Shown: positions 23,683 to 60,785, counted from the stretch's first letter. The stretch is DNA of 64,000 bases from an uncultured Methanoregulaceae archaeon (GCA_963701095.1 OY969564.1:1248001-1312000); one strand, 5' to 3'. The notes: generated by a model from the letters alone, not told the origin. A program made the numbers and translations.

Positions 23683-24938
23683 TCACACCTCGATTCTCTC
23701 TGCTGCCACATCCATCTTCTCCTTGAAATCCTTTAAAAATGCCACGACCCGGTCTGCAGTCTCCCTCTTACACTGCCCACAGGTAATTTCACCGGAACAG
23801 CACTTGCGATGGATTTCCGCAAGTTCTGCATCATCGGTCACCATATGGAACATGTTAAGCAGGTAAAGCGTGCATTTATTCGGTTCACCACCGAGCCGCC
23901 GTTGTTCCTCAAGGGTCATCCTGCCCCCGGTAAGACCGCTCATTACTTTCTTTCGCACCACCGCTTCGGGTTCAAAAAATGAAATCAGGCTCTCGGGAAT
24001 GCTTGACGACATTTTGCCGCCGGTGAGGCCGGGCAGGAAGATATGGTACGTGGATGAGGGGGTGTAAAACGCATAACCTCCACAGACCCTCTCAATTTCT
24101 CTGACCTTCGCACTTACATCATCACATCCGGCGCCCGGATATCAATATGGCCCTCATATTTCTTTGCGTAAGGAAACGCTTTTTTTATTGCATCAAGTGC
24201 TGAATCAGGGGCGTTCTTCGAACGTACACTTATGTACCCATCCCGTTCTTCGACAATGAACATCCTGAATTTATTCGCGATTCCCCGAGTGAGCCGGATG
24301 TGGGGGTCCTGATCGATTCCTACGGGAACCAACGTGGGGGCTGGTTCTCCTTCAACCTGCGGGTACAGGATATCGGCAACCTGTGTAATTACACTGTCAG
24401 CGTGAGCGAGAGCCGTTTCCGGGGAAAAACCGTAGATCGCATTTAGTTCGGAAAAGTTTACCTTAGTTGCTGCCTCGAAAGCTAGATCCTTGAGTCTGTT
24501 ATTTTTGCTTTGGAAATAGGTCTTTCCTTCAAAGCCAAGAGCATAAAGACAGGAGAGGTATTCCTTTCCATATTCCCTGCATTTCTCCCAGGAAAGTCCC
24601 CGAACTGCATATGCTTCCCGATCCGCTATGGTTACATACCCGGTTGCCCCCTGCTGCACATGCCAGACAATTTCTTTCATAAGCATGAGATGACCGAGAT
24701 GGGGATGGCCGCTTGGCATAAACCCGGTCAAAAGATAAAACGGCGTACGGTTCCGGATGGCACGGGCAATCGGGAGATAGTCGCGCTGGCCGACCACAAT
24801 GCCCCGGCGCATGAAATAGGGTATCTCGGGCAATTCGGAAAGTATCGGAGCTATCGGATCGATACCAAATTCGGCAAATGTCTTCTCTACATCAAGAGAG
24901 GGGGTGCTTGACCAGGGATTAATCGATGATTCAGGCAT
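23683..24938 (-). CDS. trpS: tryptophan--tRNA ligase; frameshift near 24135
   Basis: TGFMPSG-x-x-HLGH, VPVG-x-DQDPH; after the shift, PGLTGGKMSSS and TGGR. Confidence 0.92.
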
Positions 24939-24980: not shown

Positions 24981-25991
24981 TTAGAGTTTTATACGGGCGA
25001 ATTCGACGAACTGGATTCCGTTAGTATGTACACAGCCAAACAACATCTTCTTTTTGACGCTGTGGGCCATCCTGACTGAACGGGAGATAACGCTCATGGG
25101 CAGGACTGCCTCTTTTTCTATCGCATGCACCAGCATGTCGGAATGAACATTCTTTCCACAGTAAACCCGGAAATGATGGCCGAACTTGTAACCGGTCCGG
25201 GCAATAAAATCATGCCGGCGTAGTTCGGTGTAGACTTTGTCTTTAGCAGCGAGTTCCGGATCATTTGCTTTCGCAACTTCAAAAAACTCTGTTGAGTTCA
25301 GCGGCGAATCTTCTCTGGTAAGACGAACAATTTCCTTTCCCATCAGATACAGCAGTTCTACCGGTGTAATCATAAGCCGTTCTTCATCAAAACGCTTACC
25401 AAAACCTGCTTTTTCCAGTTCAGACTGAGGTGGCACCCGGATCATTGCAGATGATCCAACCAGTACGGCATCGGAGAGCTCAATTCGGGGAAGAGGAATA
25501 CCGGGGTCAGCCAGTTTCTGGATCTTGATCTCGTAGTAGGTCAGTTCTTCCTCATCGTCGACAACTGAAAGTACGTATTGTTTACGCATATTCCTTGCAG
25601 TGACTACTTCTTCGATCAGATTCGTAAACCGGATCGGTTCTCGCTCCGAGAGGACGCGGACAAGGTAAAGCGACTCACCGGTACCTGGTTTTTCACCGCG
25701 CCGGAATACCCGAAAATCGTGCGGACCTGTCTGGACGACATAACCACGTTCACGCAGATCGCGGTACACGAGGAAGCTTCGCAGGAAATTGCGCTGGTTG
25801 GCGTACTCATAGAGGAGGGTATCAAACGTGTAGCCCGGAATCTCAATCCTCTTGCGGTGAAGCAGGTAGAGGGCTTCCTGAGGCGCGAGTCGTACCCCGT
25901 CACCTTCGGGTCGCCCATACCCGCTCTGGTCGTACAGCACCCGTCCATCCCTTCCAGTCAGCACAGATGTGCCGTCAAAAGACGCCTTCAC
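24981..25991 (-). CDS. endA: tRNA-intron endonuclease (tandem-repeat alpha2 type)
   Basis: two endonuclease repeats; catalytic repeat TGYKFGHHFRVY...HS...RMAHSVKK. Confidence 0.93.
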   Translation of the reverse strand: MKASFDGTSVLTGRDGRVLYDQSGYGRPEGDGVRLAPQEALYLLHRKRIEIPGYTFDTLLYEYANQRNFLRSFLVYRDLRERGYVVQTGPHDFRVFRRGEKPGTGESLYLVRVLSEREPIRFTNLIEEVVTARNMRKQYVLSVVDDEEELTYYEIKIQKLADPGIPLPRIELSDAVLVGSSAMIRVPPQSELEKAGFGKRFDEERLMITPVELLYLMGKEIVRLTREDSPLNSTEFFEVAKANDPELAAKDKVYTELRRHDFIARTGYKFGHHFRVYCGKNVHSDMLVHAIEKEAVLPMSVISRSVRMAHSVKKKMLFGCVHTNGIQFVEFARIKL

Positions 25992-26265
25992 TGCCAGATC
26001 TATTGTTGCCGAAGCGTTATAAGTGCACGGGAAAAAGGAACGTGCCCTTATGCGCGTCCCGGTATTTCCAGATCGAAATCCTTATGAATTACAATAATCT
26101 GGAACAATGCCTATTAAAAGGTAAAAATCGAACATGTATAGTCAGATTGTATCTCATAAGTATGCTTATTTGCACGTCCCCGAGAGTGGATTAATTCCGG
26201 GAATATTTGGGTAATACTATAAGGTACATTGATCACCCACACACCGGATTCATTTCAGCAGCCAA

Positions 26266-26925
26266 TTGTACGCGGCGAAAAAAATGATGGTGCATCAGAA
26301 CAGCGACCTTGGATGCCGACGCAGGAGTAACATCAACCTCGCGGGTTTTCTCGCGAGGTCAGCGGTAAACGGTCCTGGCATCCGGGCCGTTATCTGGGTG
26401 CAGGGGTGTCCGATCCAGTGTAAAGGTTGTTTTAACCAGGCATTCTGGTCTTATTCTCGAGGCAATCTGGTTTGTGCAGATGATATCACCGACAGAATCC
26501 TTGCTACGAAAGATATCGACGGGGTTACGTTTTCCGGGGGAGAGCCGTTTGCACAGGCAGACGCACTTGCATCCGTGGGAGAACAGGTTCAGGAAGCAGG
26601 GTACACGGTCGTGACCTATACAGGGTATACGTTCGAGCAGCTTACCTCAAGTGCAGATCCTGCATCGAGCCGGCTCCTGAATGTTACCGATCTTCTCATT
26701 GCAGGCCCCTATATCAGAGCCCAGGCATGCAATCACCCATATATCGGTTCATCAAACCAGCAGCTCATCTCCCTTACAGAAAGGGTTTGCACGGATTTCG
26801 TGAATGAACAAACCGATAGTGAGATTATCGAATTTTCGATTACACCAAGAGGAGTAATCACGACGACTGGTTTTCCGCAGGAAAACATGGTCCGCAAGAT
26901 TGCTACCCTCTGCAGGGAAACGTGA
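26266..26925 (+). CDS. radical SAM protein, NrdG/PflA activase-like
   Basis: NGPG-x-R-x-V-x-WVQGC-x-x-x-C-x-GC-x-N, GVTFSGGEP, DLLIAGPY, GSSNQ; start uncertain (TTG 26266 or ATG near 26284). Confidence 0.85.
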   Translation: MYAAKKMMVHQNSDLGCRRRSNINLAGFLARSAVNGPGIRAVIWVQGCPIQCKGCFNQAFWSYSRGNLVCADDITDRILATKDIDGVTFSGGEPFAQADALASVGEQVQEAGYTVVTYTGYTFEQLTSSADPASSRLLNVTDLLIAGPYIRAQACNHPYIGSSNQQLISLTERVCTDFVNEQTDSEIIEFSITPRGVITTTGFPQENMVRKIATLCRET

Positions 26926-26929
26926 TATC

Positions 26930-27328
26930 ATTTCACATTTCAGCCGTATTCGAACTACCTTCCGGCACCGTGAAGCATTAATCCAGTGCATGCAGGAGCT
27001 CGGCTATACAGTCGAAATAGAGACCACCATCAGGGGCTACCACGGCCAGCACAACGTGGACATTGCTGTGAAAAATACGGGAGGATACGGACTTGGTTTT
27101 GTAAAAAACCCAGACGGCACGTACGACATGGTAGCGGACTGGTGGGGCATTTCAGGAAAAGGCGAGAAAAAGATTGCCGAAGAACTCAAACAACAAGCAG
27201 AAAAAATCCAGAAAGAATATGCAAAAAAAATAGTGCTCGAACAAACAGCTGCCGACGGATTTTCCCTGATCTCAGAAACCGAAGAGTCAGACGGGACCGT
27301 GCGGATAGTTGTCAGGAGGTGGAAGTAG
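26930..27328 (+). CDS. DUF1257 / Ycf35-like protein
   Basis: (M)SHFSRI-x-T...L...ELG, IRGY-x-G, GF...DG-x-Y-x-x-VADWW, Y...GF...DGTVRIVVRRW; ATT lies where the family Met is expected (alternative TTG at 26900). Confidence 0.85.
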   Translation: MSHFSRIRTTFRHREALIQCMQELGYTVEIETTIRGYHGQHNVDIAVKNTGGYGLGFVKNPDGTYDMVADWWGISGKGEKKIAEELKQQAEKIQKEYAKKIVLEQTAADGFSLISETEESDGTVRIVVRRWK

Positions 27329-27331
27329 TCT

Positions 27332-28891
27332 ATGCAAATTGCTGAACCCGATTTTTCCCGCAGGTTGAATGTCTCGCTCAGGGCCCGGGTTACGCTGATT
27401 GTAGTGATTACACCGGAAGAAGAACGGGTTGTTTCGCAAATCCATGATGTCTGCGAGAGATGGGATCCTCCCCGCCAGTGTATCGCCTGGGATAGCGTCG
27501 ATGGTTTTTCTGTGATCGTTGGCAATAAAAATTTCATGAGCCAGTCCAAGGACCCACTCGCGGCACTCGATGATATCGTCAAGACAGGAGAGGATGCAAT
27601 TGTTATTCTCAAAGATTTCCACGAGTATTGGAACAATCCTCAGGTAAAACGACGGATTCGCAACTTTTCGCAGGCATTCCGGTATAACCGGCGCACGATT
27701 GTGATCGTGACCCCGACACCGCGGGTGCCGGATGAGATCCGCGACGATGCGGTAATCGTGCATTTTCCGCCACCTTCGGCAGCAGAGTTATCTGCTGATC
27801 TCGATACCCTGCTTGCCACAAGTGGCATCGCTTGTTCACTATCTCCCGCAGGCCGGGAAAAGATTATCCAGGCCGCCATCGGCATGACCCTGAACCAGGC
27901 ACGCCGGGCATTCTCAAAAGCGATTGTGACCCATGGCACGCTTGACGACCGGGATATTGATGCGATCATCGCGGACAAAAAAGACATCCTGAGCTCCTCG
28001 GACGCACTTGAGTTTTATAGTTATACTGAGGCTCCGGAGAACGTTGGGGGCCTTGCTGTGCTCAAGGAATGGCTTTCCTTGCGTGAACGGGCATTCACAC
28101 AGGATGCACGCGACTTCGGGCTCCCGTCGCCAAAAGGTATCGCGTTGATCGGAATCCCCGGCACCGGTAAAAGCCTCACTGCAAAAATGATCGCCGATCT
28201 CTGGCACTTACCCCTGCTCAGGCTCGATGTCGGGGCACTCTTCGGCAGCCTCGTCGGAGAATCTGAGGAGAGAACGCGCCGGGCGCTCTCACTTGCCGAG
28301 ACTATCAGTCCCTGTATCCTTTGGGTGGACGAGATTGAGAAAGCATTTGCGTTTGGCAGCGGGGATGCAGGCACGAGCCAGCGGGTCTTTGCCCACCTTC
28401 TTACCTGGATGCAGGATAAAACTTCTCCCTGTTTTGTAGTCGCCACGGCCAATAACATCGCCGCCCTCCCACCGGAACTCCTACGAAAGGGCCGTTTCGA
28501 CGAAATATTCTTCCTCGACCTTCCAACAACTGAAGAGCGTCGCGAGATTTTTACGGTGCACCTTAAGAAACGCAAATGCATCCCTGCTGAATTTGATCTC
28601 GATTCCCTTGCGCAGAAAAGCGAAGGCTACGTAGGCGCCGAGATCGAGCAGACGATCATTGATGCGATGTACCGGGCATTCAGCGAGAATATGCGCCGGG
28701 TAACGACCGCTGACATTCTTCACTGCATGAAAACACAGGTCCCCCTTTCTGTCTCACAACGGGAGACGGTGGCAGCTCTCAGGGGCTGGCTTGCTGAAGG
28801 TCGGGCGCAGTCTGCATCGCGGGTAGCCACGACACCATCAGGGAACGGAAAAGTGATTGCACTGGAGACTTTTGATAACAGACACGCTTAG
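27332..28891 (+). CDS. Ycf46-like AAA+ ATPase
   Basis: degenerate N-terminal AAA-like domain (EEERV, LKDFH); VGGL, Walker A GIPGTGKS, pore loop GSLVGESE, Walker B WVDEIEK, ATANN...LPPELLRKGRFDEIFF. Confidence 0.92.
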   Translation: MQIAEPDFSRRLNVSLRARVTLIVVITPEEERVVSQIHDVCERWDPPRQCIAWDSVDGFSVIVGNKNFMSQSKDPLAALDDIVKTGEDAIVILKDFHEYWNNPQVKRRIRNFSQAFRYNRRTIVIVTPTPRVPDEIRDDAVIVHFPPPSAAELSADLDTLLATSGIACSLSPAGREKIIQAAIGMTLNQARRAFSKAIVTHGTLDDRDIDAIIADKKDILSSSDALEFYSYTEAPENVGGLAVLKEWLSLRERAFTQDARDFGLPSPKGIALIGIPGTGKSLTAKMIADLWHLPLLRLDVGALFGSLVGESEERTRRALSLAETISPCILWVDEIEKAFAFGSGDAGTSQRVFAHLLTWMQDKTSPCFVVATANNIAALPPELLRKGRFDEIFFLDLPTTEERREIFTVHLKKRKCIPAEFDLDSLAQKSEGYVGAEIEQTIIDAMYRAFSENMRRVTTADILHCMKTQVPLSVSQRETVAALRGWLAEGRAQSASRVATTPSGNGKVIALETFDNRHA

Positions 28892-28897
28892 CATCCT

Positions 28898-31689
28898 ATG
28901 AAAATTCCTCCCCTATTTCCGGTTATCGGCCCTTTTTTTTCCGGCGTTCGGTTCGTGGTATTGCCAGAGCTGCGAAATGCGGGGATCTCCAGGCAGTCCG
29001 CAAACTCACCGCCATTGTTTCGTCCTGCCCGGATAAATTTTCCCGTTCCAGGGCTCTTGAGGTCCTTGCATCGCTTTCATCGCAGGCTGCCATCGACGAA
29101 TTCTGCAAAGAGGTGATAATCCGGGATAATCAGGAACTTGAAAAAGTTGCTATCAACCAGGCATACACACCTTTGGAACCGGGATCGAGGGCGGTTTTTC
29201 TTTATGTCACCGGGCAGGATGAAGCGTTATGCCGGTTCGATCCTGATGCCCATCACCCGTTATTAGCTAATGGGTATGCTACGGCACCGGCCAGAATAAA
29301 AAACCGGGTTCTCTGCGGTGCTTCTTCTCCCCGCATGGACCGGATTCTTGCCCATGCACTAATCGGAACTGACCCGGTGCGCGCTGCAGGTATATTGACC
29401 TACCTTGAGTGGGAGGTAGTCATCTCCGGTTTGACCCGGGAGAAAGCATGGGATGTGCTGTGGCTTTTGGTTATTGCTGCACCTCCATCACTTACAGTAG
29501 TAGTTTTAGAAAACATGAGGGTTGCCGGCTGGAAACCGTTCGGTGACAGCATGCGGGTCTTTGAGGATCTGATCAACGAGCTTCCGGAAGGATGGGCTTA
29601 TCCCGCTCCTGAAAAACCTATCCTATCCATGAGCGACCAGAACAGCCAGTGCCTGAGACTTGCATTCTCCCGTGATGGCACTCTTCTTGCGGCAGGAAAA
29701 AGCGACGGGAAGATTGCAATCTGGCAAGTCTCCTCAGCCCGGCTTTTAACCTCCCTCTCAACAAATGCCGGATCGATCAATTTCATTTCATTCACATCGG
29801 ACAATACGAACCTTATCATAGGCGGGCGCACTGGAATGATCGCCTGCTATGGCATTCCTTTAGGAAACACGATCTGGTCGGACAAAGGTCGCCCGTTTTC
29901 TTGTGTTGCAATGTCAAGAGATAGAGAAGAAATTATTGTCAGTGATGATCAGGGAAAGATTACCCGTCTTATGTGTCAGACCGGCAAAATTCTGCTCACA
30001 ATATCAGGACTCATATCCAAGGTTACGGTCATTTCCCTTTCCCCTGACAAAAAATATATTGCTTTTGGCCATATGGATGGCACCATTTGCTGTAAGGAGG
30101 CAGGGACCGGCACAGATGTATGGACAGTGCCGGGTACCGGCAACGCTGTAAGGGCCCTTGCATTTACCGGACAAGACAACCAGCTGTTCGTAGTTTATGA
30201 ACGAGTTCTCCCTGCCCTTAGGGACGGAAATACAGGAATTTTCCTTAGGACTTTCGATGGATTTTCCGGTCGCCCCTCCTGTTATGCGATATCAGCGGAA
30301 AACAGTATGGCAGGGATTGGCAGCGATGATAGAGTACTTCGTTTCTGGAACATGCATGATAAAAACCCGATAGCATCATTTCCCTTCTACAACCGCATCC
30401 CGACATGCTGTTGCCTGACACCTGATGCTAATCTAGCCGCTGTCGGTTGCAACGATGGAACGATCTTCTTTTTCAGTGTTCACGAAAGACAGAAAATAAA
30501 AGAATTCCGGGGGTGTAAACAATCCGTCGCCACCTGTTCGATCTCTCCGGACGGAAATATTCTTGCTACGACGGGAGGAGATGGAACCGTCACCCTCTGG
30601 AGTATTCCTACCGGAGAACTTCTCCGGACACTCCGGAGACCGGCAGGTGCGATAACCGCCCTTGCTCTCACTTCCAGCGCTGCTGGTGCCGGCATAATTG
30701 CAGGCACTACTGATGGCAGGATCCGCATCTTCTCCTGTGAAGATGGCGGACTTGTAAGATCTATCGATATGTACACACCATCGATCACGACCCTTGCCGT
30801 CAGTCCTGATGGAACATACCTTGCCTGTGCCGGAAAAGACGCAAGCCTTCGTTTCTGGGACCTTGCCAAAGGAGGCCTTGTTGCCACGTGTGATACGCCC
30901 AAATCGAGTGTGCGGTGTCTTGCCTTCCTGCCGGATAGAGCCGCATGTATTTCCTGCGGTTGGGATGGAAAAGTGCGGATCTGGGATGTGACAGGTGGAA
31001 AACCGCAGGAGATCCTGGTCGGGCATTCGAGTATTATAACCTGTTGCAGTGTAGATCCCCGAGGACGTTTTTTTGTCACTGGAAGCAATGACACGACCCT
31101 AAGGATCTGGCAACTGACCGGTGAAAAAACGAGTGTCGTTCTCAGGGGTGCGAAGCAGGAGGTGAGTGTCTGTGCGATTTCCCCGGACGGGACACTCCTT
31201 GCCGCTGCTGGCGCTGATCCTGAGATCCAATTATACCATTTTCCGGAGGGGATTGTTGCAGGAACTATCCCCCAGATCCCAGGAAGACCCTCGGCACTCG
31301 CTTTCACTGATGACGGGCTTATGATTGTGGTTGGATATGATCATGGCACCACCGCGTTTTATGCTGTCCACGGACATTCCCTGATCCGGATTCTGCCCAC
31401 CCACTCAGGAAAAGTTACCGGAATCGTTGCTATAAAAGGAGAGGACTGCTTCGTTACCAGCGGTACTGACGGGATGATCCATATCTTCCGGATCCCTTTT
31501 ATGCGGCCCTTATCCCGGACCTCATTTACAGACCTTGCTCTTGCCCGGGAACAGGCTGCCGTTACTGGATCTACGGCAGCACAATGGAGGTTCCTATGCC
31601 ATCTTCTATCCTTTCGGTTCCAGAACGAAATCGAACTCTGCCCGACATACCGTGATGCAGGAATATATGATATCCAAATTGTCGGGTGA
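28898..31689 (+). CDS. large WD40-repeat protein with helical N-terminal region; frameshift in the poly-T run near 28932-28941
   Basis: many repeats of the type SPDG...A(T/S)GG-x-DG-x-(V/I)-x-(L/I)W; removing one T joins ATG 28898 to ORF 29113-31689. Confidence 0.88.
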
Positions 31690-33312
31690 TTCTCGTGAAC
31701 AGGTACGCACAACCCACCCTGCCAACAGTTCAGCTCGGCGTAGACTTCGGAACCAGTTCGCTGGTCATTTGCATACCAGGACAAGGTAACGACGGATTCC
31801 GTACTCTCGCATTCCCCGGGTGGTCACAGGAGATAACCGGAGCGATTTCTGGTGAAGCGGTCAACGCTGTACCGGTATTGATCCTTTACGATCAGGACGG
31901 GAAGAGAACCATTGGTGATGAAGTTACGCGTGCGGGTGCTGCTGATCATCCAACAACGGCACGTTGGATCCGAAAGTACCTGCTCGAGGAGAGCCCGGTG
32001 CTGATCCCAGCCGGCGGGAATCGCCATATATCATTTCGCGGTGCGGCAGCGGATTTTCTGGGGTCAGTTATTAGCCGGGCAATAAAGGAGGCCCCTGAAT
32101 ATTCTTCCATGGTCTTTGTTATTCCTTCCGGTGCGCCTGAATGGTATATAAGATGGCTCGGGGATATTGCGCAAACCGCGGGAATCAGATCATGGAATAC
32201 GATTACTGAGCCTGCAGCAGTTGTTGCGGGTTACGAGCTGATTCCTGAACCGGGGCAGGCCTATCTCATTGTCAATTGGGACGAGACAGAACTTACAGTA
32301 TCGTTTGCGTTATCTGAAGAACCATCGGATCATCATCCTGCCGGGGGAGTATTTGCAATCAGTACCGCGTGTGATGATACGGGGTGTAAAGCGGTCGATG
32401 ACTGGATTGCCCAGGATGTGCTTGCCCGGAGCCCCCTTAAGTATATGGGGGCAAAGGCGCAGAGGATTTACGCAAATATTACCGGAAGGAGTAGGGAGCT
32501 TTACAGTCAGCTGGCAAAATCGGATGAGGCTCTGATACACATTGAGGATCCGCTTTCCGGAACAACCCTTTCTGCAAGAATATCCCGTGAAGATATCAAA
32601 AGGATCCTGACTGAGCATGAAATCCCCTCAGTCCTTGAACGAACAAGCAGCCGTGCACGGGTCGTCGCCAGCTCCAGGGGGTGTAAAGGGCCTGACACCA
32701 TCCTGATGACCGGTCGCGGATGTGCAATACCCATGGTCCGGGAACTCGTGAAACAGCAGTTTCCAGGAATGAAGATCCTTTCAGATCATCCCGTTGATGC
32801 CGCTGCCCGCGGGGCTTCAATCTTTTTACCCCGTGCGAACCTCCCTGATCGGGTTAAAAATGATTATGCTCTTCGGGTACTGGGACCCAAAAAGCCGGGA
32901 GCACCGGTACCGGTTCCTTGTCCGCAGCGGGGCCCGGTACCCGAGTGCTGGCCAGGTAGCCCGCATCACTATCAGTGCCGCGTACGATGGTCAGACCCGT
33001 CTCGGAATCCCCCTCTACGAGATGAGTGCGTCTCCAGACACAGACATCCCTGATATCGAACTGGTCTCGGACCCCGCCGGGGGAATCCGCCTCGCTGCTC
33101 CGCCGGAAAATACTGGAGGCGGAGGCAGAATCCACCCGGTAAACGAGCGGACTCCGACACTGCTGGTCGCTGACCCGCCGGCACTTAAAGGCGAACCGCG
33201 ATTTGAACTAACGTTCATGCTTGACCGGGAAAAACTACTGCGCGTTACAGCGCGCGATCTTGTAACCGGTACGCTTTTGAAAAAAGATGTACCGGTATAT
33301 AAACTGACATGA
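31686..33312 (+). CDS. divergent Hsp70/DnaK-family protein; frameshift near 32877
   Basis: LGVDFGTS, TEPAA, MTGRG-x-x-IP-x-V, AAARGA; shifted frame gives a beta-sandwich tail (GEPRFELTF-x-LD...LRVTARDL-x-TG). Confidence 0.82.
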
Positions 33313-33329
33313 CAACAGGAGGATAATAA

Positions 33330-33533
33330 ATGGAAATGCAGGAAATGGAGATTACGATCGATACAGAAGGCAGAATACAGGTTACCGTGACGGGCGCACA
33401 CAATACTGAATGCCTTGAGCTAACCAAAAAGCTCGAGGAGGCCACAGGTGTTGTTGAGGAACGGATCTATTTACCGGCATATTATGAGCACCAAGTAAGC
33501 GAAGACCAGAATGCCCGTATCCGGCGCTCTTAA
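33330..33533 (+). CDS. DUF2997 family small protein
   Basis: EITID-x-x-G-x-I-x-V-x-V-x-G...C-x-ELT-x-x-LE-x-x-x-G-x-V...YY; RBS AGGAGG. Confidence 0.85.
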   Translation: MEMQEMEITIDTEGRIQVTVTGAHNTECLELTKKLEEATGVVEERIYLPAYYEHQVSEDQNARIRRS

Positions 33534-33539
33534 AAAGAA

Positions 33540-34397
33540 TTACCGGGCGAGATCCCGTACAGCCCGGATATTACCCCGGTCATCGCGCCGGTCGTCAACG
33601 GGAGTTTCGCAGATAAGTGGCAGGCGATTAAACACCGGGTTATGGAGGATGCACCGGAAACCATCTTCACCAATGAACCCCATGCCTATATGTTCATGCC
33701 GGTCAAGGCCACTCCCGAGATCACCTTTTGTGTCGTTGGCATGGATTACTTTGAGCCTGCCGATACCCACGGTTTCATCAAGCTGCGCAAGAGTGGCGGC
33801 AAGACCGGTCTCAGTACGCAGCTCATATCCTGCGGCAAACGCATGGCAGGTATCAAAGCAGATCCCTATCCGGTTGGATCGTTCGATCCCGCTGATAATA
33901 CCCTGAATTTGCTCGAAACTGCTTCCTACACTATTCTTCTCTCCAGCGGTATTTTCCAGCAGCAGTATAACGTTTGTATCGGACGCATCAAGCGCCATAT
34001 TCACCGCTTTTATTACCCGTCCCCTGCCTCCCGCTATTCCATCCCCGAGATGGTGGCCAAGATGCGTGACAAGATAGGGAATTTCAAGCCTTCCGCACCG
34101 GTCAAGCTCTGCCTGAAGCGTTTGTACTGATTTATCCCAAATCTCTGTTTTAGGGGAGGCAAGATTGGGGAGGTAGGGCATATGATCGACCGGTATAATC
34201 CCGGTCGTTGCAATTTTCTTCCGGAAAAGGGTGCAGTCATCATCGGTCAGGGGCTTGAACCCCCATCCCCGGGGATTACGCGAGAACATCTGAAAAACGT
34301 CGCATCCCGCATCTTTTGCACGGTCGACGGTAAGATCGAGTGAACCGGCTATAGAAACATGGACGCCTACTTTTACCTGTGCCACAGTTTTCCACAC
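33540..34397 (-). CDS. nfo: endonuclease IV (AP endonuclease 2)
   Basis: GVHVSIAG, H-x-PYL-x-NLAS, LLENTAG, CFDTCH-x-FAAGY, HAND...DRHEHIG-x-G, ETP. Confidence 0.94.
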   Translation of the reverse strand: MWKTVAQVKVGVHVSIAGSLDLTVDRAKDAGCDVFQMFSRNPRGWGFKPLTDDDCTLFRKKIATTGIIPVDHMPYLPNLASPKTEIWDKSVQTLQAELDRCGRLEIPYLVTHLGHHLGDGIAGGRGRVIKAVNMALDASDTNVILLLENTAGEKNSVGSSFEQIQGIISGIERSNRIGICFDTCHAFAAGYELRTETGLAATLAQLDETVGIGRLKVIHANDTKGDLGSGLDRHEHIGMGFIGEDGFRCILHNPVFNRLPLICETPVDDRRDDRGNIRAVRDLAR

Positions 34398-38198: not shown

Positions 38199-39798
38199 AT
38201 GAATACTAAGAGTACAGTTTTCCGATCTTTCCCTTTCAAAAGAGATCGCGAAAGCCATCGAACAAATGGGCTTTGAAGAGCCCACCCCCATCCAGGCACG
38301 TGCAATACCCCTCATCCAAAGCGGCCGGGATGTGACAGCACAGGCACAGACCGGCACCGGAAAAACCTCGGCTTTTGGTATCCCGGTCATTGAAAACATA
38401 GACCAGACCCAAAGGGTTGTTCAGACTATCGTGCTCTGTCCAACGCGTGAACTCGCCATTCAGATCGCCGAAGAATTCTCCCATCTTCTTGCATATCTCC
38501 CGAAAATTTCAATTCTCCCGGTATATGGCGGCCAACCAATTGAACGCCAGCTAAAGCTCTTGCACATGGCGTCCATATTGTTATCGGAACCCCTGGACGC
38601 GTGATGGACCATCTCCGGCGCCGGACACTCTCCCTTGACCATGTCTCGATTGTTGTTCTTGATGAAGCCGACCAGATGCTCGATATGGGATTTCGCGAAG
38701 ATATCGAGCATATTTTAAAAAGTGTCCCGCAGAAACGGCAGACACTGCTCTTCTCCGCGACGATGCCCCAGCCTATTATAGAGATTTCAAAACGGTTCCA
38801 GAACAAGCCCGAGTTTGTCCGAATAGAGTACCAGGAACTAACAGTTCCTGCTACAGAACAATCCTATATCGAAGTCAAGGACCGGGACAAACTTGATTCC
38901 CTTTGCCGGGTAATCGATGTCGTCGACCCACAACTTGCCATAATCTTCTGTAACACCAAGAGGCGAGCAGAGGATCTTGCCAGTCATATCAGGGCACGGG
39001 GTTACCGCGCCGAGGAACTTCACGGAGATATGAAACAGACCCAGCGGGACCGGGTCATGAACAGTTTCCGGAAAGGCACTCTCGATATCCTGATAGCGAC
39101 CGATGTCGCCGCGCGGGGAATAGATGTTGAAGATGTCGATATCGTAATTAATTACGATGTTCCTCAAGATGTCGAATACTATGTTCACCGCATCGGCCGC
39201 ACGGGGCGAGCCGGGAAAAGTGGCCGGGCAATCACCTTTGTAACACCCCGGGATTTAACCAAACTCCGCGAGATCCAGAAATACATAAAAGTTCAGATCC
39301 CACGAAAGAATCTTCCGACTGCAGACGATGTCGTTGAATCAAAAACCAAGACAATTATCGAAGAGATCCGTGAGACTGTCCAAAAGGGTGGTATTGACCA
39401 GTATAAACGGATGATCGAAAAGGAGAGCGAAGGAGATCTCTCAACGCTTGAGATCGCTGCCGCTCTCATGAAATTGCGTATGGAGCAGGGAGCGGAAACC
39501 CGCAAAGAACGCAACGCCCCGGCCGATTTCGGAGATACCGGCGCAGAGGCCGGCATGGTACGGTTCTTCTTAGGTCTTGGACGGAACCACAATGTCAGCT
39601 CCCAAGGACATTGTCGGCGCAATAGCTGGTGAAACCGGTATCCCTGGCAAATCAATAGGGGCGATAAGGATACTCGATACCTATTCCTTTGTTGAAGTAC
39701 CCCGCGATTGTGCAGAAGAGGTCTATACTATCATGAAGGATCGCACGATCCGCGGCCAACCAACCGGGATAGAACCGGCCCAAGGCCGTAATGAGTGA
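38199..39798 (+). CDS. deaD: DEAD-box RNA helicase (DeaD/CsdA-like with DbpA RNA-binding domain); frameshifts near 38210, 38555 and 39600
   Basis: Q motif GFEEPTPIQ, AQTGTGKT, PTRELA, TPGR, DEAD, SAT, ARGID, HRIGRTGRAG; C-terminal IVGAIA-x-E...IG-x-I...SFVEV. Confidence 0.9.
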
Positions 39799-46519: not shown

Positions 46520-47322
46520 TCACTTATTGTCCGATAATTTATCCCAGAACCGGGCTAGAATTCGCCAGATCTTTTCGCGTAACTCAAGGACCTGATCTTC
46601 GCTTGCAACAGGTCGGTGACCATGGATACCATCAGTCTCATAGAGCTTCCGGTTTACTTCTATCTGGATCCACGGTATCCCTTTACGCCAGTAATGGGCG
46701 TTTGAAATGAAGCCTCCGGAGAAGGGAACATTGATTGCAACTTCATCTTTTCCTTTAAATTCGTCCCTGAATATCTCTGCAAGGCCCACGACCCAATCCG
46801 CGGGGCAGGTGATAAGGCTCCCGGGTTTTGCCTGACCCGTTTCATCACCATAGTTCCCCAGACAGATGAGCGGCCTGCATTTACCTGCATCACTTTGTTC
46901 TGCGGATCCATACGGGAGCATGGAGTGGCAATCAAACGCTATCTGTATTGGATGTTTGTCGATAATCTCATCGATTCTCTGGTGATAAGGAAAATACCAT
47001 TTCACCATAAGCTGGTGTATAAGATTCAAATCGGGAAGCTGTCCAGGCCGGTAAACCTGCCGCCCGTCCACAGTCCTGACCTTGATGATCCCATCCGGGT
47101 CCCGGGGGGAAGCGGTAACGGCGGACGATTTAGATCGATAACCATTCGGGAAATGGGCGTATCAATTGAAGATTCCACCCACTGGCCGAAGTCAAAAAGT
47201 ATCCTCGTGGCAGGATCGCAATACCAGGATACCTCCTCAGGTAAAAGAGCAAGCCGGCTAGATACTTCCTCCGGTATCTCATTTCCACCATGGGGGATCG
47301 ATATAAGAAAAGGATATTTCAT
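46520..47322 (-). CDS. N-formylglutamate amidohydrolase family protein; frameshift near 47105
   Basis: ISIPHGG, SR-x-VIDLNR, Y-x-PYH, DCHSM, N-x-PFSGG, IQIEVNR-x-LY. Confidence 0.85.
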
Positions 47323-59563: not shown

Positions 59564-60785
59564 ATGGATCTTTCATACAATATGATCCTCGGTAAGGGGG
59601 CGTATCTCCGGCAAATGACCACTGCAACGTCGCAGATGAAGTCGGTAGAAGTGGGTAAGGAAATGACCGGCAGCTCCCCGCCATCGGTTTTTATCGGCAG
59701 TCTGGAATTACCCGGATGTTTTCGCCGGTCCTATGATAGCGCCGATCCATGGTGACACCGCGATCATGGATCGGCCTGAAGAATGGATTAGCAGCAAACT
59801 GACTCAGGAGGAGATCATAGGGTACCGGATGAACCTTGTCCGGGGTAAACACATGACCAACGCATGTGATGTTAGCAGCCGGTTTGTCGAAAAACTTCAG
59901 GAAATCGTCCTCGCTGACAGTTCTATCGAGAGCGAGGCTGCTTTTGAGAGTGCTCCTTCTGGTTTCACTTTTTCAGAAGAACACACCCCATTTGGCCCGA
60001 GTGGCTCTCTTGAAAATTTTGAAATCGAAGCAGGACGCTGGGATCCGTCACTCGAAAAAGTTTTTTATGATACCGACATGGCGGCCCGAAATGCCGTGCT
60101 TGATTTACACAGTTCGGGTCTTGCATTCTCTACAATCCAGAAGGCATTCTCTGCAGGGACAATGGGAAGAGGTCCCAAACGACGTCTTGTTCCAACACGG
60201 TGGTCGATAACCGCATGCGACACAATGATTGGAGACCAGCTCCTGTGTGAAGTGAAAAAATATCCGGTAATTGATACTATGCGACTTTATGAGTTCGCAA
60301 GCCTTCATAACAGGTACGCGGTTCTTCTGATGCCAACAAGCTGGCAGTATGAATGGACAGAAGCGTTCATTCACGTGCTTGGGAATGAGGAATATGTCTT
60401 TTCAGATCATGAAGGTCATAAAGGAAAGGAAGGGTATTCACCTCTTGGTGGGTGTTACTATTCATGCAAAATGGCTGTCCTTGAAGCGCTTGCCCGGGAA
60501 CACCATCAGGCCGGTGCTATTATCCTTCGTGAGGCATTGCCCGGTTATGTGCCCATGGGGGTATTTAATGTCCGTGAGAACGTCAGAAGTGCAATGCAGG
60601 AATCGTTCACCGAATTCGAAGATCTGAAATCTGTTCTTGGGCATGTTTCTGATACATTTACTCTTCCTGTTCAGCGGTTTATCACCGAGACGACACTTCT
60701 CAGGGAAAGCCTGAAACAGCGCCAATGCACCCTGAGTGATTTTTCGGGTTTTTCGGGAAAACATGGCGGTAAACCCGATGCCTGA
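59564..60785 (+). CDS. nreA: Nre family DNA repair protein; frameshift near 59702
   Basis: G-x-SPPSVFIG-x-x-x-YP-x-V, P-x-GPS, RRLVPTRWSITA-x-D, GGCYY, P-x-GV-x-x-VRE-x-VR, C-terminal PIP-like QCTLSDF. Confidence 0.88.

Follow-up and report, generated by a model that had tools for sequence, protein, structure and literature searches.

A six-gene cluster in Methanoregulaceae that combines a Ycf46-type AAA+ ATPase with DUF1257 and DUF2997: a candidate modular protein-remodelling machine

What is the task of six tightly packed genes that some Methanoregulaceae keep between two housekeeping genes and that close relatives lack altogether? The question is raised by a stretch of 64,000 nucleotides from an uncultured Methanoregulaceae archaeon (GCA_963701095.1 OY969564.1:1248001-1312000), referred to here at its full length as the window and numbered from its first letter. 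Positions 26266..33533 of its + strand encode a radical SAM (S-adenosylmethionine) enzyme, a DUF1257 protein of the Ycf35 family, a Ycf46-type AAA+ ATPase, a WD40 protein, an Hsp70-like protein and a DUF2997 protein. A preliminary description, made from the sequence alone, had recognised these six families in six co-oriented genes lying between a divergent endA and a convergent nfo. Open reading frame (ORF) calling and Pfam matches returned the same coordinates and flanks, and the family assignments were borne out by Pfam, NCBIfam and, for the Hsp70-like protein, a profile search and a fold search. The reading that we favour, and hold with about even confidence, is that the cluster is a modular, dispensable protein-remodelling machine built around the Ycf46-type AAA+ protein and the DUF1257-DUF2997 pair, and that it represents the Methanoregulaceae form of a widespread, undescribed machine.

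The proposal that the genes form one dedicated unit is supported by their joint retention or loss at a single locus. A DUF1257-anchored scan with one genome per species yielded 64 loci from Methanoregula, Methanolinea and other Methanoregulaceae/Methanomicrobiales. By tblastn, the six genes stand in the same order at 53 of these loci, and nine are cut by contig ends. Locus L125 misses only the tblastn match for DUF2997, which blastp found on the same contig (L063), and L090, on a 24-kb Methanoregula contig, is without the WD40 gene and the Hsp70 ATPase domain. The AAA gene of L090 is directly followed by the Hsp70 substrate-domain part and DUF2997, at a coverage of about 1.8, and a misassembly is possible there. 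The Hsp70-like gene was found in nine of 24 other congeners, and at the eight loci fetched the full set lies in unchanged order between EndA and Nfo; this EndA...Nfo locus recurs in several further genera. In cluster-less congeners EndA directly adjoins Nfo (five of five), with no AAA orthologue (best matches about 33% identical). In the congeners whose loci were fetched, the endA-nfo locus carries either the whole set or the two flanking genes side by side.

The cluster is nevertheless patchy in its distribution. An even sample of the order showed DUF1257 in 16 of 43 Methanoregulaceae genomes, in 1/20 of a second family and in 0/137 of four others, and a sample of the phylum gave 14 of 401 genomes, among them 12 of the 28 Methanoregulaceae and a single genome of another family. 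A tree of three flanking proteins (43 rows, after rows without all three flanks at 90% cover had been dropped) placed five empty loci inside cluster-bearing clades, so that at least four changes are needed. Because the empty loci nest in this way and deeper-branching genera carry the cluster at the same locus, repeated clean loss of the whole cluster is the simplest reading. There is no sign of recent transfer within the family, either in the synonymous divergence (dS), which is similar for the cluster and its flanks, or in the nearest relatives of the window, which agree by flanks (L080, L081, L079) and by cluster genes.

The ratio of nonsynonymous to synonymous divergence (dN/dS) was estimated by the Nei-Gojobori method in 25 genomes, with medians taken over the 13 pairs whose flank dS lay between 0.3 and 0.8. 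The median was 0.06 for AAA, 0.09 for DUF2997, 0.10 for DUF1257 and 0.17 for the Hsp70 substrate domain, and rose to 0.21 for the radical SAM enzyme, 0.24 for the Hsp70 ATPase domain and 0.26 for WD40; the flanks gave 0.05-0.12. Judged by these ratios, the six genes are functional and under purifying selection, with the WD40 protein, the Hsp70 ATPase domain and the radical SAM enzyme evolving 2-4 times faster than the core.

As assembled, two of the genes are frameshifted and DUF1257 has no ATG, which might suggest a decaying or accidental neighbourhood made of pseudogenes or mere adjacency. We regard such an explanation as highly improbable. It is opposed by the purifying selection on all genes and by the conservation of order and content at the 53 loci, and furthermore by contigs from public sequencing runs that mend both frameshifts. 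The first frameshift is a T run at 28933-28940 in the WD40 gene, which is assembled without its first 70-odd codons, the N-terminus sitting in another frame as an ORF of 72 amino acids (aa). The second is a G run near 32875 in the Hsp70-like gene, assembled as two overlapping ORFs. Single-frame orthologues measure 931-963 aa for the WD40 protein and 530-554 aa for the Hsp70-like protein. Contigs from the runs X1 and X2, which possibly derive from the source sample, and X6, a run from another study, have one more T behind 28932 (X1 13.3/13.3 depth, X2 8.43/8.43, X6 3.6/3.6). Likewise, they have one base fewer at 32875 in X1 (13.3/13.3) and X2 (8.22/8.22), X6 being without cover there. Since the run contigs supply the T that the window lacks and are free of its surplus base, both frameshifts are homopolymer assembly errors and the WD40 and Hsp70-like genes are whole in the sampled DNA; the pseudogene reading of the frameshifts is ruled out. 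With the missing T counted and the extra base at 32875 removed, the proteins measure about 931 aa (WD40) and about 541 aa (Hsp70-like).

Other genes of the window are split alike. Compared with the complete congener G103, about six real genes are affected, among nine split rows of 60 (many shadow ORFs), and the one-contig source genome scores only 86% complete, on which grounds the window assembly appears indel-rich. The frame changes relative to G103 lie at about 8104 and at 23686-24938, 38553-38562, 39598-39605, 47107-47119 and 59703-59818; a Trp/Tyr-tRNA synthetase gene of 418 aa in G103 is represented by 274 + 109 aa in the window.

The unusual start of DUF1257 is of another kind. Its canonical start codon is ATT (26930-26932), where orthologues have ATG (19/21) or GTG (2/21), all 21 beginning at the residue just before the SHF motif. 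The X1 and X2 contigs cover the site with no differing letter, so the ATT is real in the runs. Translation may start at a TTG at 26900, which lies 30 nt upstream, in frame and overlapping the end of the radical SAM gene, or at the ATT itself. Neither the frameshifts nor the ATT start had been part of the preliminary description.

The AAA+ ATPase at the centre of the cluster comprises an N-terminal domain of about 235 aa, an AAA core and a lid. The alignment contains a Walker A motif (GIPGTGKS), a Walker B motif (WVDEIEK), an LVGESEE loop and RKGRFDE, and the Walker A and B motifs, arginine fingers and lid are conserved across archaeal and bacterial members. Its nearest Atlas clusters in a language-model neighbour list, used as a lead only, are named ycf46.

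Its presumed partners, DUF1257 and DUF2997, exceed the Pfam gathering scores clearly. DUF1257 reaches 79.6 bits (gathering 22.2), covering profile positions 1-103 of 103, and DUF2997 reaches 46.1 bits (gathering 24.1), with I8, G14, V20, G22, C28, T32, E36 and G40 invariant. Prediction of the DUF1257-DUF2997 complex gave a score of 0.62, as compared with 0.00 for the best of three controls; the complex-score mark is one reached by 116 of 157 solved complexes and by 2 of 215 mismatched pairs, counts that are approximate here, custom alignments having been used. The runs agree in at least 93% of contacts, with a partner pLDDT (predicted local distance difference test) of at least 55. The predicted contact is a strand pairing of DUF1257 residues 121-132 with DUF2997 residues 1-16, both of which are conserved stretches, and the model supports binding of DUF1257 to DUF2997. 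The DUF1257 sequence alone gave a chance-level match only in the PDB (HMG box, E 0.28). Its AlphaFold2 model has a pLDDT of 80, and a fold search against 48,161 chains returned KA1/AMPK-type and TBP/START-like arrangements with a best Z of 6.9, which is under the informative level.

The Hsp70-like ORFs by themselves have no Pfam match, and NCBIfam gives only weak HscA matches for them, with no specific family for the Hsp70-like, WD40, DUF1257 or DUF2997 proteins. However, a profile of 17 sequences, ten of them aligned orthologues from other genera of the family, matched BiP/Hsc70/DnaK in the PDB over two stretches at 7e-37. The AlphaFold2 model was made for the G019 orthologue, which shares 52% (N part) and 78% (C part) of its residues with the two parts in the window. 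It has a pLDDT of 82, and its top Foldseek match is DnaK lacking the helical lid (SBDalpha), 5obu, at 3.6e-27, with template modelling (TM) scores of 0.53-0.55 to DnaK/Hsc70. The modelled architecture is a nucleotide-binding domain followed by a beta-sandwich substrate domain, after which the protein ends, the lid being absent. Profile and model together assign the protein to the Hsp70 family as a lid-less member.

In Hsp70 the glycines of the phosphate-2 loop and of the adenosine motif are needed for ATP binding. The phosphate-2 loop of the window protein reads NWDETELT and not DxGGGTxD, and it fails the pattern GG[GDSA] at 21 of 21 loci titled Methanoregula, three of which keep GG. At all ten loci titled Methanolinea, the loop pattern DxGG[GDS] and the GG of the adenosine motif are both kept. 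Moreover, the substrate domain is better conserved than the ATPase half. Because the glycine-rich ATP-binding loops have been lost, the Methanoregula protein is probably a nucleotide-independent holder or scaffold, and cycling like a normal Hsp70 is unlikely.

The WD40 protein has an N-domain and a C-terminal tail, ...YDIQIVG, that are both conserved in orthologues. Over loci L013-L069 the tail, at 31669-31689 in the window, follows the pattern YDI[QE]IV[GE]. The end of the AAA protein (28850-28880) resembles this tail in having the form hydrophobic-x-L-[ED]-x-hydrophobic, read as IALETF in the window and as IQLDPL, VQLDLF or KLEM/L in others. A C-terminal tag shared by the WD40 protein and the AAA protein is possible.

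The radical SAM enzyme is closest to glycyl-radical activases (NCBIfam NrdG 6.7e-31, PflA 1.1e-17). Likeness to these activases extends to its size, an N-terminal CX3CX2C cluster motif in a GxR...GC context and the SAM-binding GGE motif; in 20 orthologues both motifs are kept, within the conserved stretches NGPGxRxVxWVQGCPxRCxGCFN and TFSGGEPF. However, its 107.3 bits against the NrdG model TIGR02491 lie under the equivalog cut-off of 126.1, it carries a conserved C-terminal extension of its own (EFTI..DG..T.TGFP), and it is neither placed beside NrdD nor retained where the cluster is lost. In the cluster-bearing genomes G000 and G103 no other gene gives a strong Fer4_12 match, and the cluster-less G020 and G004 lack a counterpart of the enzyme, while NrdD is found in all four genomes, far from the cluster site, with or without the cluster. 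On these comparisons the enzyme is not the housekeeping NrdG and is dedicated to the cluster, being present only with it while NrdD stays elsewhere. A Gly_radical domain, and with it a glycyl-radical partner, was found in none of the four genomes. ORFs of 127 aa whose match to the NrdD model is confined to its C-terminal end (about 508-562) were seen in G103 (C1:5948-6106), G020 (C1:177854-178018) and G004 (C10:104717-104866), with none listed in G000; these frames stand apart from the main NrdD gene.

The kinship with NrdG and PflA would suit a machine for the maturation or repair of a radical or iron-sulfur enzyme, in which the activase installs a glycyl radical or another modification and the chaperones load, protect or recycle the partner. 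HscA, the source of the weak NCBIfam matches of the Hsp70-like protein, is an Hsp70 that serves as an iron-sulfur chaperone. DUF1257 also has iron-sulfur neighbours elsewhere: DUF2997-ycf35-fed7 is described in passages of PMC4284462 as a conserved cyanobacterial cluster, and at a cyanobacterial locus (L145, 1342-2222) the gene immediately upstream of DUF1257 is an IscA-type Fe-S_biosyn gene (4.4e-20). We nevertheless consider this explanation improbable, given that no Gly_radical domain was found in the four genomes, that NrdD is distant and present regardless of the cluster, that iron-sulfur genes are missing from most of the bacterial clusters and that no client was found. A glycyl-radical site within DUF1257 itself was considered and rejected: in its IRGYHG stretch the first glycine is only nearly invariant, GYxG fits only four of seven fixed positions of the glycyl-radical signature, and the stretch is kept in two aligned bacterial members without an adjacent radical SAM gene.

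The preliminary description had proposed to look for recurrent radical SAM, WD40 or Hsp70 partners of the core in other lineages. Such partners do occur: a radical SAM gene in Methanocella, where the order radical SAM-DUF1257-AAA (66% identical) runs up to the contig end, and an Hsp70-like gene and a HEAT-like domain in Armatimonadota. The bacterial survey covered few loci and was anchored on custom patterns and hidden Markov models (HMMs). At L142, on an Armatimonadia contig, a HEAT protein and an Hsp70-like protein (PF00012, 2.3e-25) are encoded with DUF1257 and DUF2997, and the first of these is similar to the N-domain of the WD40 protein in methanogens (2e-22). Relatives of the lid-less Hsp70, at E <=1e-30, were found in 58 of the 301 genomes of an Armatimonadota sample. 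Among the 20 loci fetched, L182, L183 and L184 place the Hsp70-like gene beside DUF1257, DUF2997 and an AAA gene with the same N-domain, in varying order; a custom HMM of this N-domain matches the AAA proteins beside DUF1257/DUF2997 in Armatimonadota at 4e-79 to 1e-11. L184 has three AAA genes with the shared N-domain, and L183 has a weak GrpE-like gene (4.4e-5) before the Hsp70-like gene; both loci also have a gene with an FGE-type domain. Some Armatimonadota genomes contain three or four Hsp70-like paralogues.

In Myxococcota, one to four FHA proteins precede AAA (40-43% identical), DUF1257 and DUF2997. Two Kofleriaceae loci of this form have further genes: at L146 (10672-12263) an eCIS_core-domain protein (3.2e-19) directly follows DUF2997, and pentapeptide-repeat proteins are encoded at both L146 and L150 (11011-11985). 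It is possible that the eCIS_core and pentapeptide-repeat genes are lineage-specific output genes of the FHA-linked form. The AAA protein of L182 in Armatimonadota is 59% identical to that of the window, as against 40-41% over the full length for Myxococcota, a difference that suggests an ancient transfer, in whichever direction, linking bacterial lineages with these archaea. On viral contigs (L201-L280), DUF2997 lies directly upstream of DUF1257 at 76 of 80 loci, in the order of the cyanobacterial DUF2997-ycf35; custom HMMs found no AAA, Hsp70-like, HEAT or radical SAM match in the stretches covered at these 80 viral loci.

The positions of the cluster genes and their neighbours are collected in Table 1. 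From gene to gene the spacings are 4 nt, 3 nt, 6 nt, a 4-nt overlap (GTGA, between the WD40 and Hsp70-like genes) and 17 nt.

Table 1. Genes of the cluster and flanking features, with positions counted from the first letter of the window.
Feature	Position	Strand	Length	Matches and remarks
Radical SAM ORF	26266-26925	+		open from TTG at 26266; relatives start at ATG 26284
NrdG-like radical SAM enzyme	26284..26925	+	~213 aa	Fer4_12 2.5e-33
DUF1257 (Ycf35 family)	26930..27328 (or from TTG 26900)	+	132 aa	PF06868 2.3e-22
Ycf46-type classical AAA+ ATPase	27332..28891	+	519 aa	PF00004 7.3e-30; AAA_lid_3 8.7e-11
HEAT-like N-domain + WD40 protein	28898..31689	+		WD40 4.8e-65; assembled as 28898-29116 + 29113-31689, two frames
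Lid-less Hsp70 paralogue	31686..33312	+		assembled as 31686-33053 + 32794-33312, two frames
DUF2997	33330..33533	+	67 aa	PF11211 4.3e-12
Flank: EndA tRNA-intron endonuclease	24981..25991	-		divergent; PF01974 1.3e-49
Flank: Nfo-type AP endonuclease (AP_endonuc_2)	33540..34397	-		convergent; PF01261 2.1e-52
Intergenic, presumed promoter region	25992..26283	.		AT-rich stretches between divergent endA and cluster

No known system with this architecture was found in PADLOC or in the literature searched. PADLOC 2.0 recognised no complete system among the six proteins, its matches being generic (IetA to the AAA core, a weak pVip at 3.4e-4 and a HEAT-ARM model to the WD40 part), and a literature search found no published system with this six-gene set. 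Five of the papers searched contain DUF1257 or DUF2997, and going by titles and abstracts none of those listed deals with such a set. By Pfam, NCBIfam and PADLOC, none of the six proteins has a nuclease, protease, pore or other effector domain, and no MoxR or vWA family is among their Pfam matches.

Besides the glycyl-radical activases, four described systems share features with the cluster. Passages on the cyanobacterial and plastid genes (Ycf46, slr0374 / Synpcc7942_0417; Ycf35; the DUF2997-ycf35-fed7 cluster) present the same three core families, with DUF1257 and DUF2997 adjacent. Going by the neighbour list, an AAA protein with a family-specific N-domain may be common to both. In contrast to the cyanobacterial genes, the three core genes of this anaerobic archaeon belong to one operon-like set that also encodes a lid-less Hsp70, a HEAT/WD40 protein and a radical SAM enzyme; a ferredoxin is absent from it.

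Hsp70 proteins and AAA+ disaggregases work as bi-chaperones, namely DnaK-ClpB and Hsp70-Hsp104. The cluster resembles DnaK-ClpB in that an Hsp70-family protein is encoded with, and presumably works with, a ring AAA+ protein, and in the weak GrpE-like gene of one Armatimonadota locus. It differs in that the AAA+ protein is a single-ring member of the classical clade and not ClpB, the Hsp70 is lid-less and, in Methanoregula, degenerate in its ATP loops, no J-domain partner is found in the cluster, and there are extra obligate small partners.

The MoxR-vWA ternary and NTPase conflict systems, as set out in parts of PMC7159879, likewise combine an ATP-driven chaperone core with variable beta-propeller, FHA or FGE-type domains and a patchy distribution; unlike them, the methanogen cluster has no MoxR-type AAA+, vWA protein, effector-associated domain or GTPase. 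In the text of that paper (Kaur et al. 2020), 'Ycf46' has 0 occurrences and Hsp70 is described only with GTPase systems. The Iet system (IetA-IetS) shares an AAA core, that of IetA aligning with AAA residues 260-480 (PADLOC 4.5e-24). However, the NCBIfam model IteA gives 83 bits against a cut-off of 510, no IetS protease gene is present, and the N-domain and partners are others.

These likenesses lead to the strongest competitor, an antiviral or conflict system in which the WD40/HEAT and Hsp70-like proteins would detect an invader protein, the AAA+ protein with DUF1257-DUF2997 would remodel the target and the radical SAM enzyme would perform damaging or signalling chemistry. The set is dispensable and repeatedly lost, and scarce outside the family (1/157 genomes of other families in the order sample). 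The dN/dS of the WD40 protein, the Hsp70 ATPase domain and the radical SAM enzyme is 2-4 times that of core and flanks. Kaur et al. 2020 (PMC7159879) list accessory domains for NTPase conflict systems that include those varying between phyla here (WD40, HEAT, FHA, FGE-type). The Hsp70-like paralogues of some Armatimonadota, the three AAA paralogues at one locus and the resemblance of the AAA core to IetA are also in keeping with it. If this were true, the cluster would be a new archaeal defence architecture.

We hold a conflict role to be rather unlikely all the same. No effector domain is encoded in the six genes, PADLOC finds no system, and the IetA similarity is confined to a generic AAA core without its IetS partner. 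Furthermore, the locus has no defence-island context and is fixed between housekeeping genes over several genera, with a dS equal to that of the flanks and no sign of the horizontal turnover typical of defence, and gene-wide dN/dS is well below 1 everywhere. The core families, moreover, are ordinary conserved genes of cyanobacteria and plastids. The anti-virus and interspecies-conflict roles left open in the preliminary description have no specific support at this locus.

A conditional role in stress or regulatory remodelling appears to fit better than a mobile defence system, because the set is dispensable and vertically inherited. By analogy, the stress-induced ycf46 operons of cyanobacteria also suit a conditional role: slr0373-0374(ycf46)-0376 appears in passages of PMC7496141 as a multi-stress operon of unknown function, and the Synechococcus elongatus ycf46 operon, according to parts of PMC13683863, is induced at severe oxidative stress.

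A protein-remodelling machine of this kind might work as follows. DUF1257 and DUF2997 would form a heterodimer by pairing the C-terminal strand of the former with the N-terminal strand of the latter, as the model predicts. The AAA+ ring, in which all ATPase motifs are kept, would use this dimer as a dedicated adaptor or regulated substrate, as their strict co-occurrence suggests. A lineage-specific input module would then recruit or sense client proteins. In the window this would be the HEAT-like/WD40 scaffold together with the lid-less Hsp70, the Methanoregula protein probably being a passive peptide holder given its lost ATP-binding loops; elsewhere it would be FHA proteins (Myxococcota) or an Hsp70-like protein, once with a HEAT-like domain and twice with FGE-type proteins (Armatimonadota). 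Finally, the NrdG-like radical SAM enzyme, found only in the anaerobic archaeal versions, may carry out a radical-based modification of a component or client. The division of labour would be that put forward in the preliminary description, with sensing by WD40 and Hsp70, unfolding by the AAA protein and modification by the radical SAM enzyme.

Several observations weigh against the remodelling machine. Patchy presence (16/43), fast WD40 and Hsp70 domains and recognition domains that vary with the phylum would also be expected of a conflict system. Core genes are missing from the surroundings of the closest Armatimonadota match of the Hsp70-like protein (L181, whose contig is 7.5 kb long), as they are from those of 15 paralogues that are more distant. 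The DUF1257-DUF2997 complex is a prediction from shallow custom alignments (17 rows), the fold search with DUF1257 led to common alpha/beta arrangements only, and the Ycf46 label, a lead only, comes from the language-model neighbour list without an alignment to a named cyanobacterial protein. Analysis of the six proteins identified no client, effector or radical SAM target.

A bolder version, which is speculative and in our judgement quite unlikely, is that the core is an ancient switchable unfoldase module of bacteria, archaea, plastids and viruses with lineage-specific sensors. The methanogen form would then pair a WD40/HEAT platform with a nucleotide-blind, peptide-holding Hsp70 and be armed by an oxygen-sensitive radical modification from the radical SAM enzyme. 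If true, it would amount to a new kind of regulated surveillance or immune-like system in anaerobic archaea.

For decades ycf46 and ycf35 have been conserved ORFs of unknown function in cyanobacteria and plastids. The cluster and its bacterial counterparts tie the two genetically to one another and also to DUF2997 and a dedicated Hsp70 paralogue, and a testable physical prediction follows, namely a DUF1257-DUF2997 dimer that would be served by an AAA+ ring. A radical SAM enzyme and a WD40 platform are further parts of the methanogen form, and the close relatives with and without the cluster offer natural comparisons for its phenotype.

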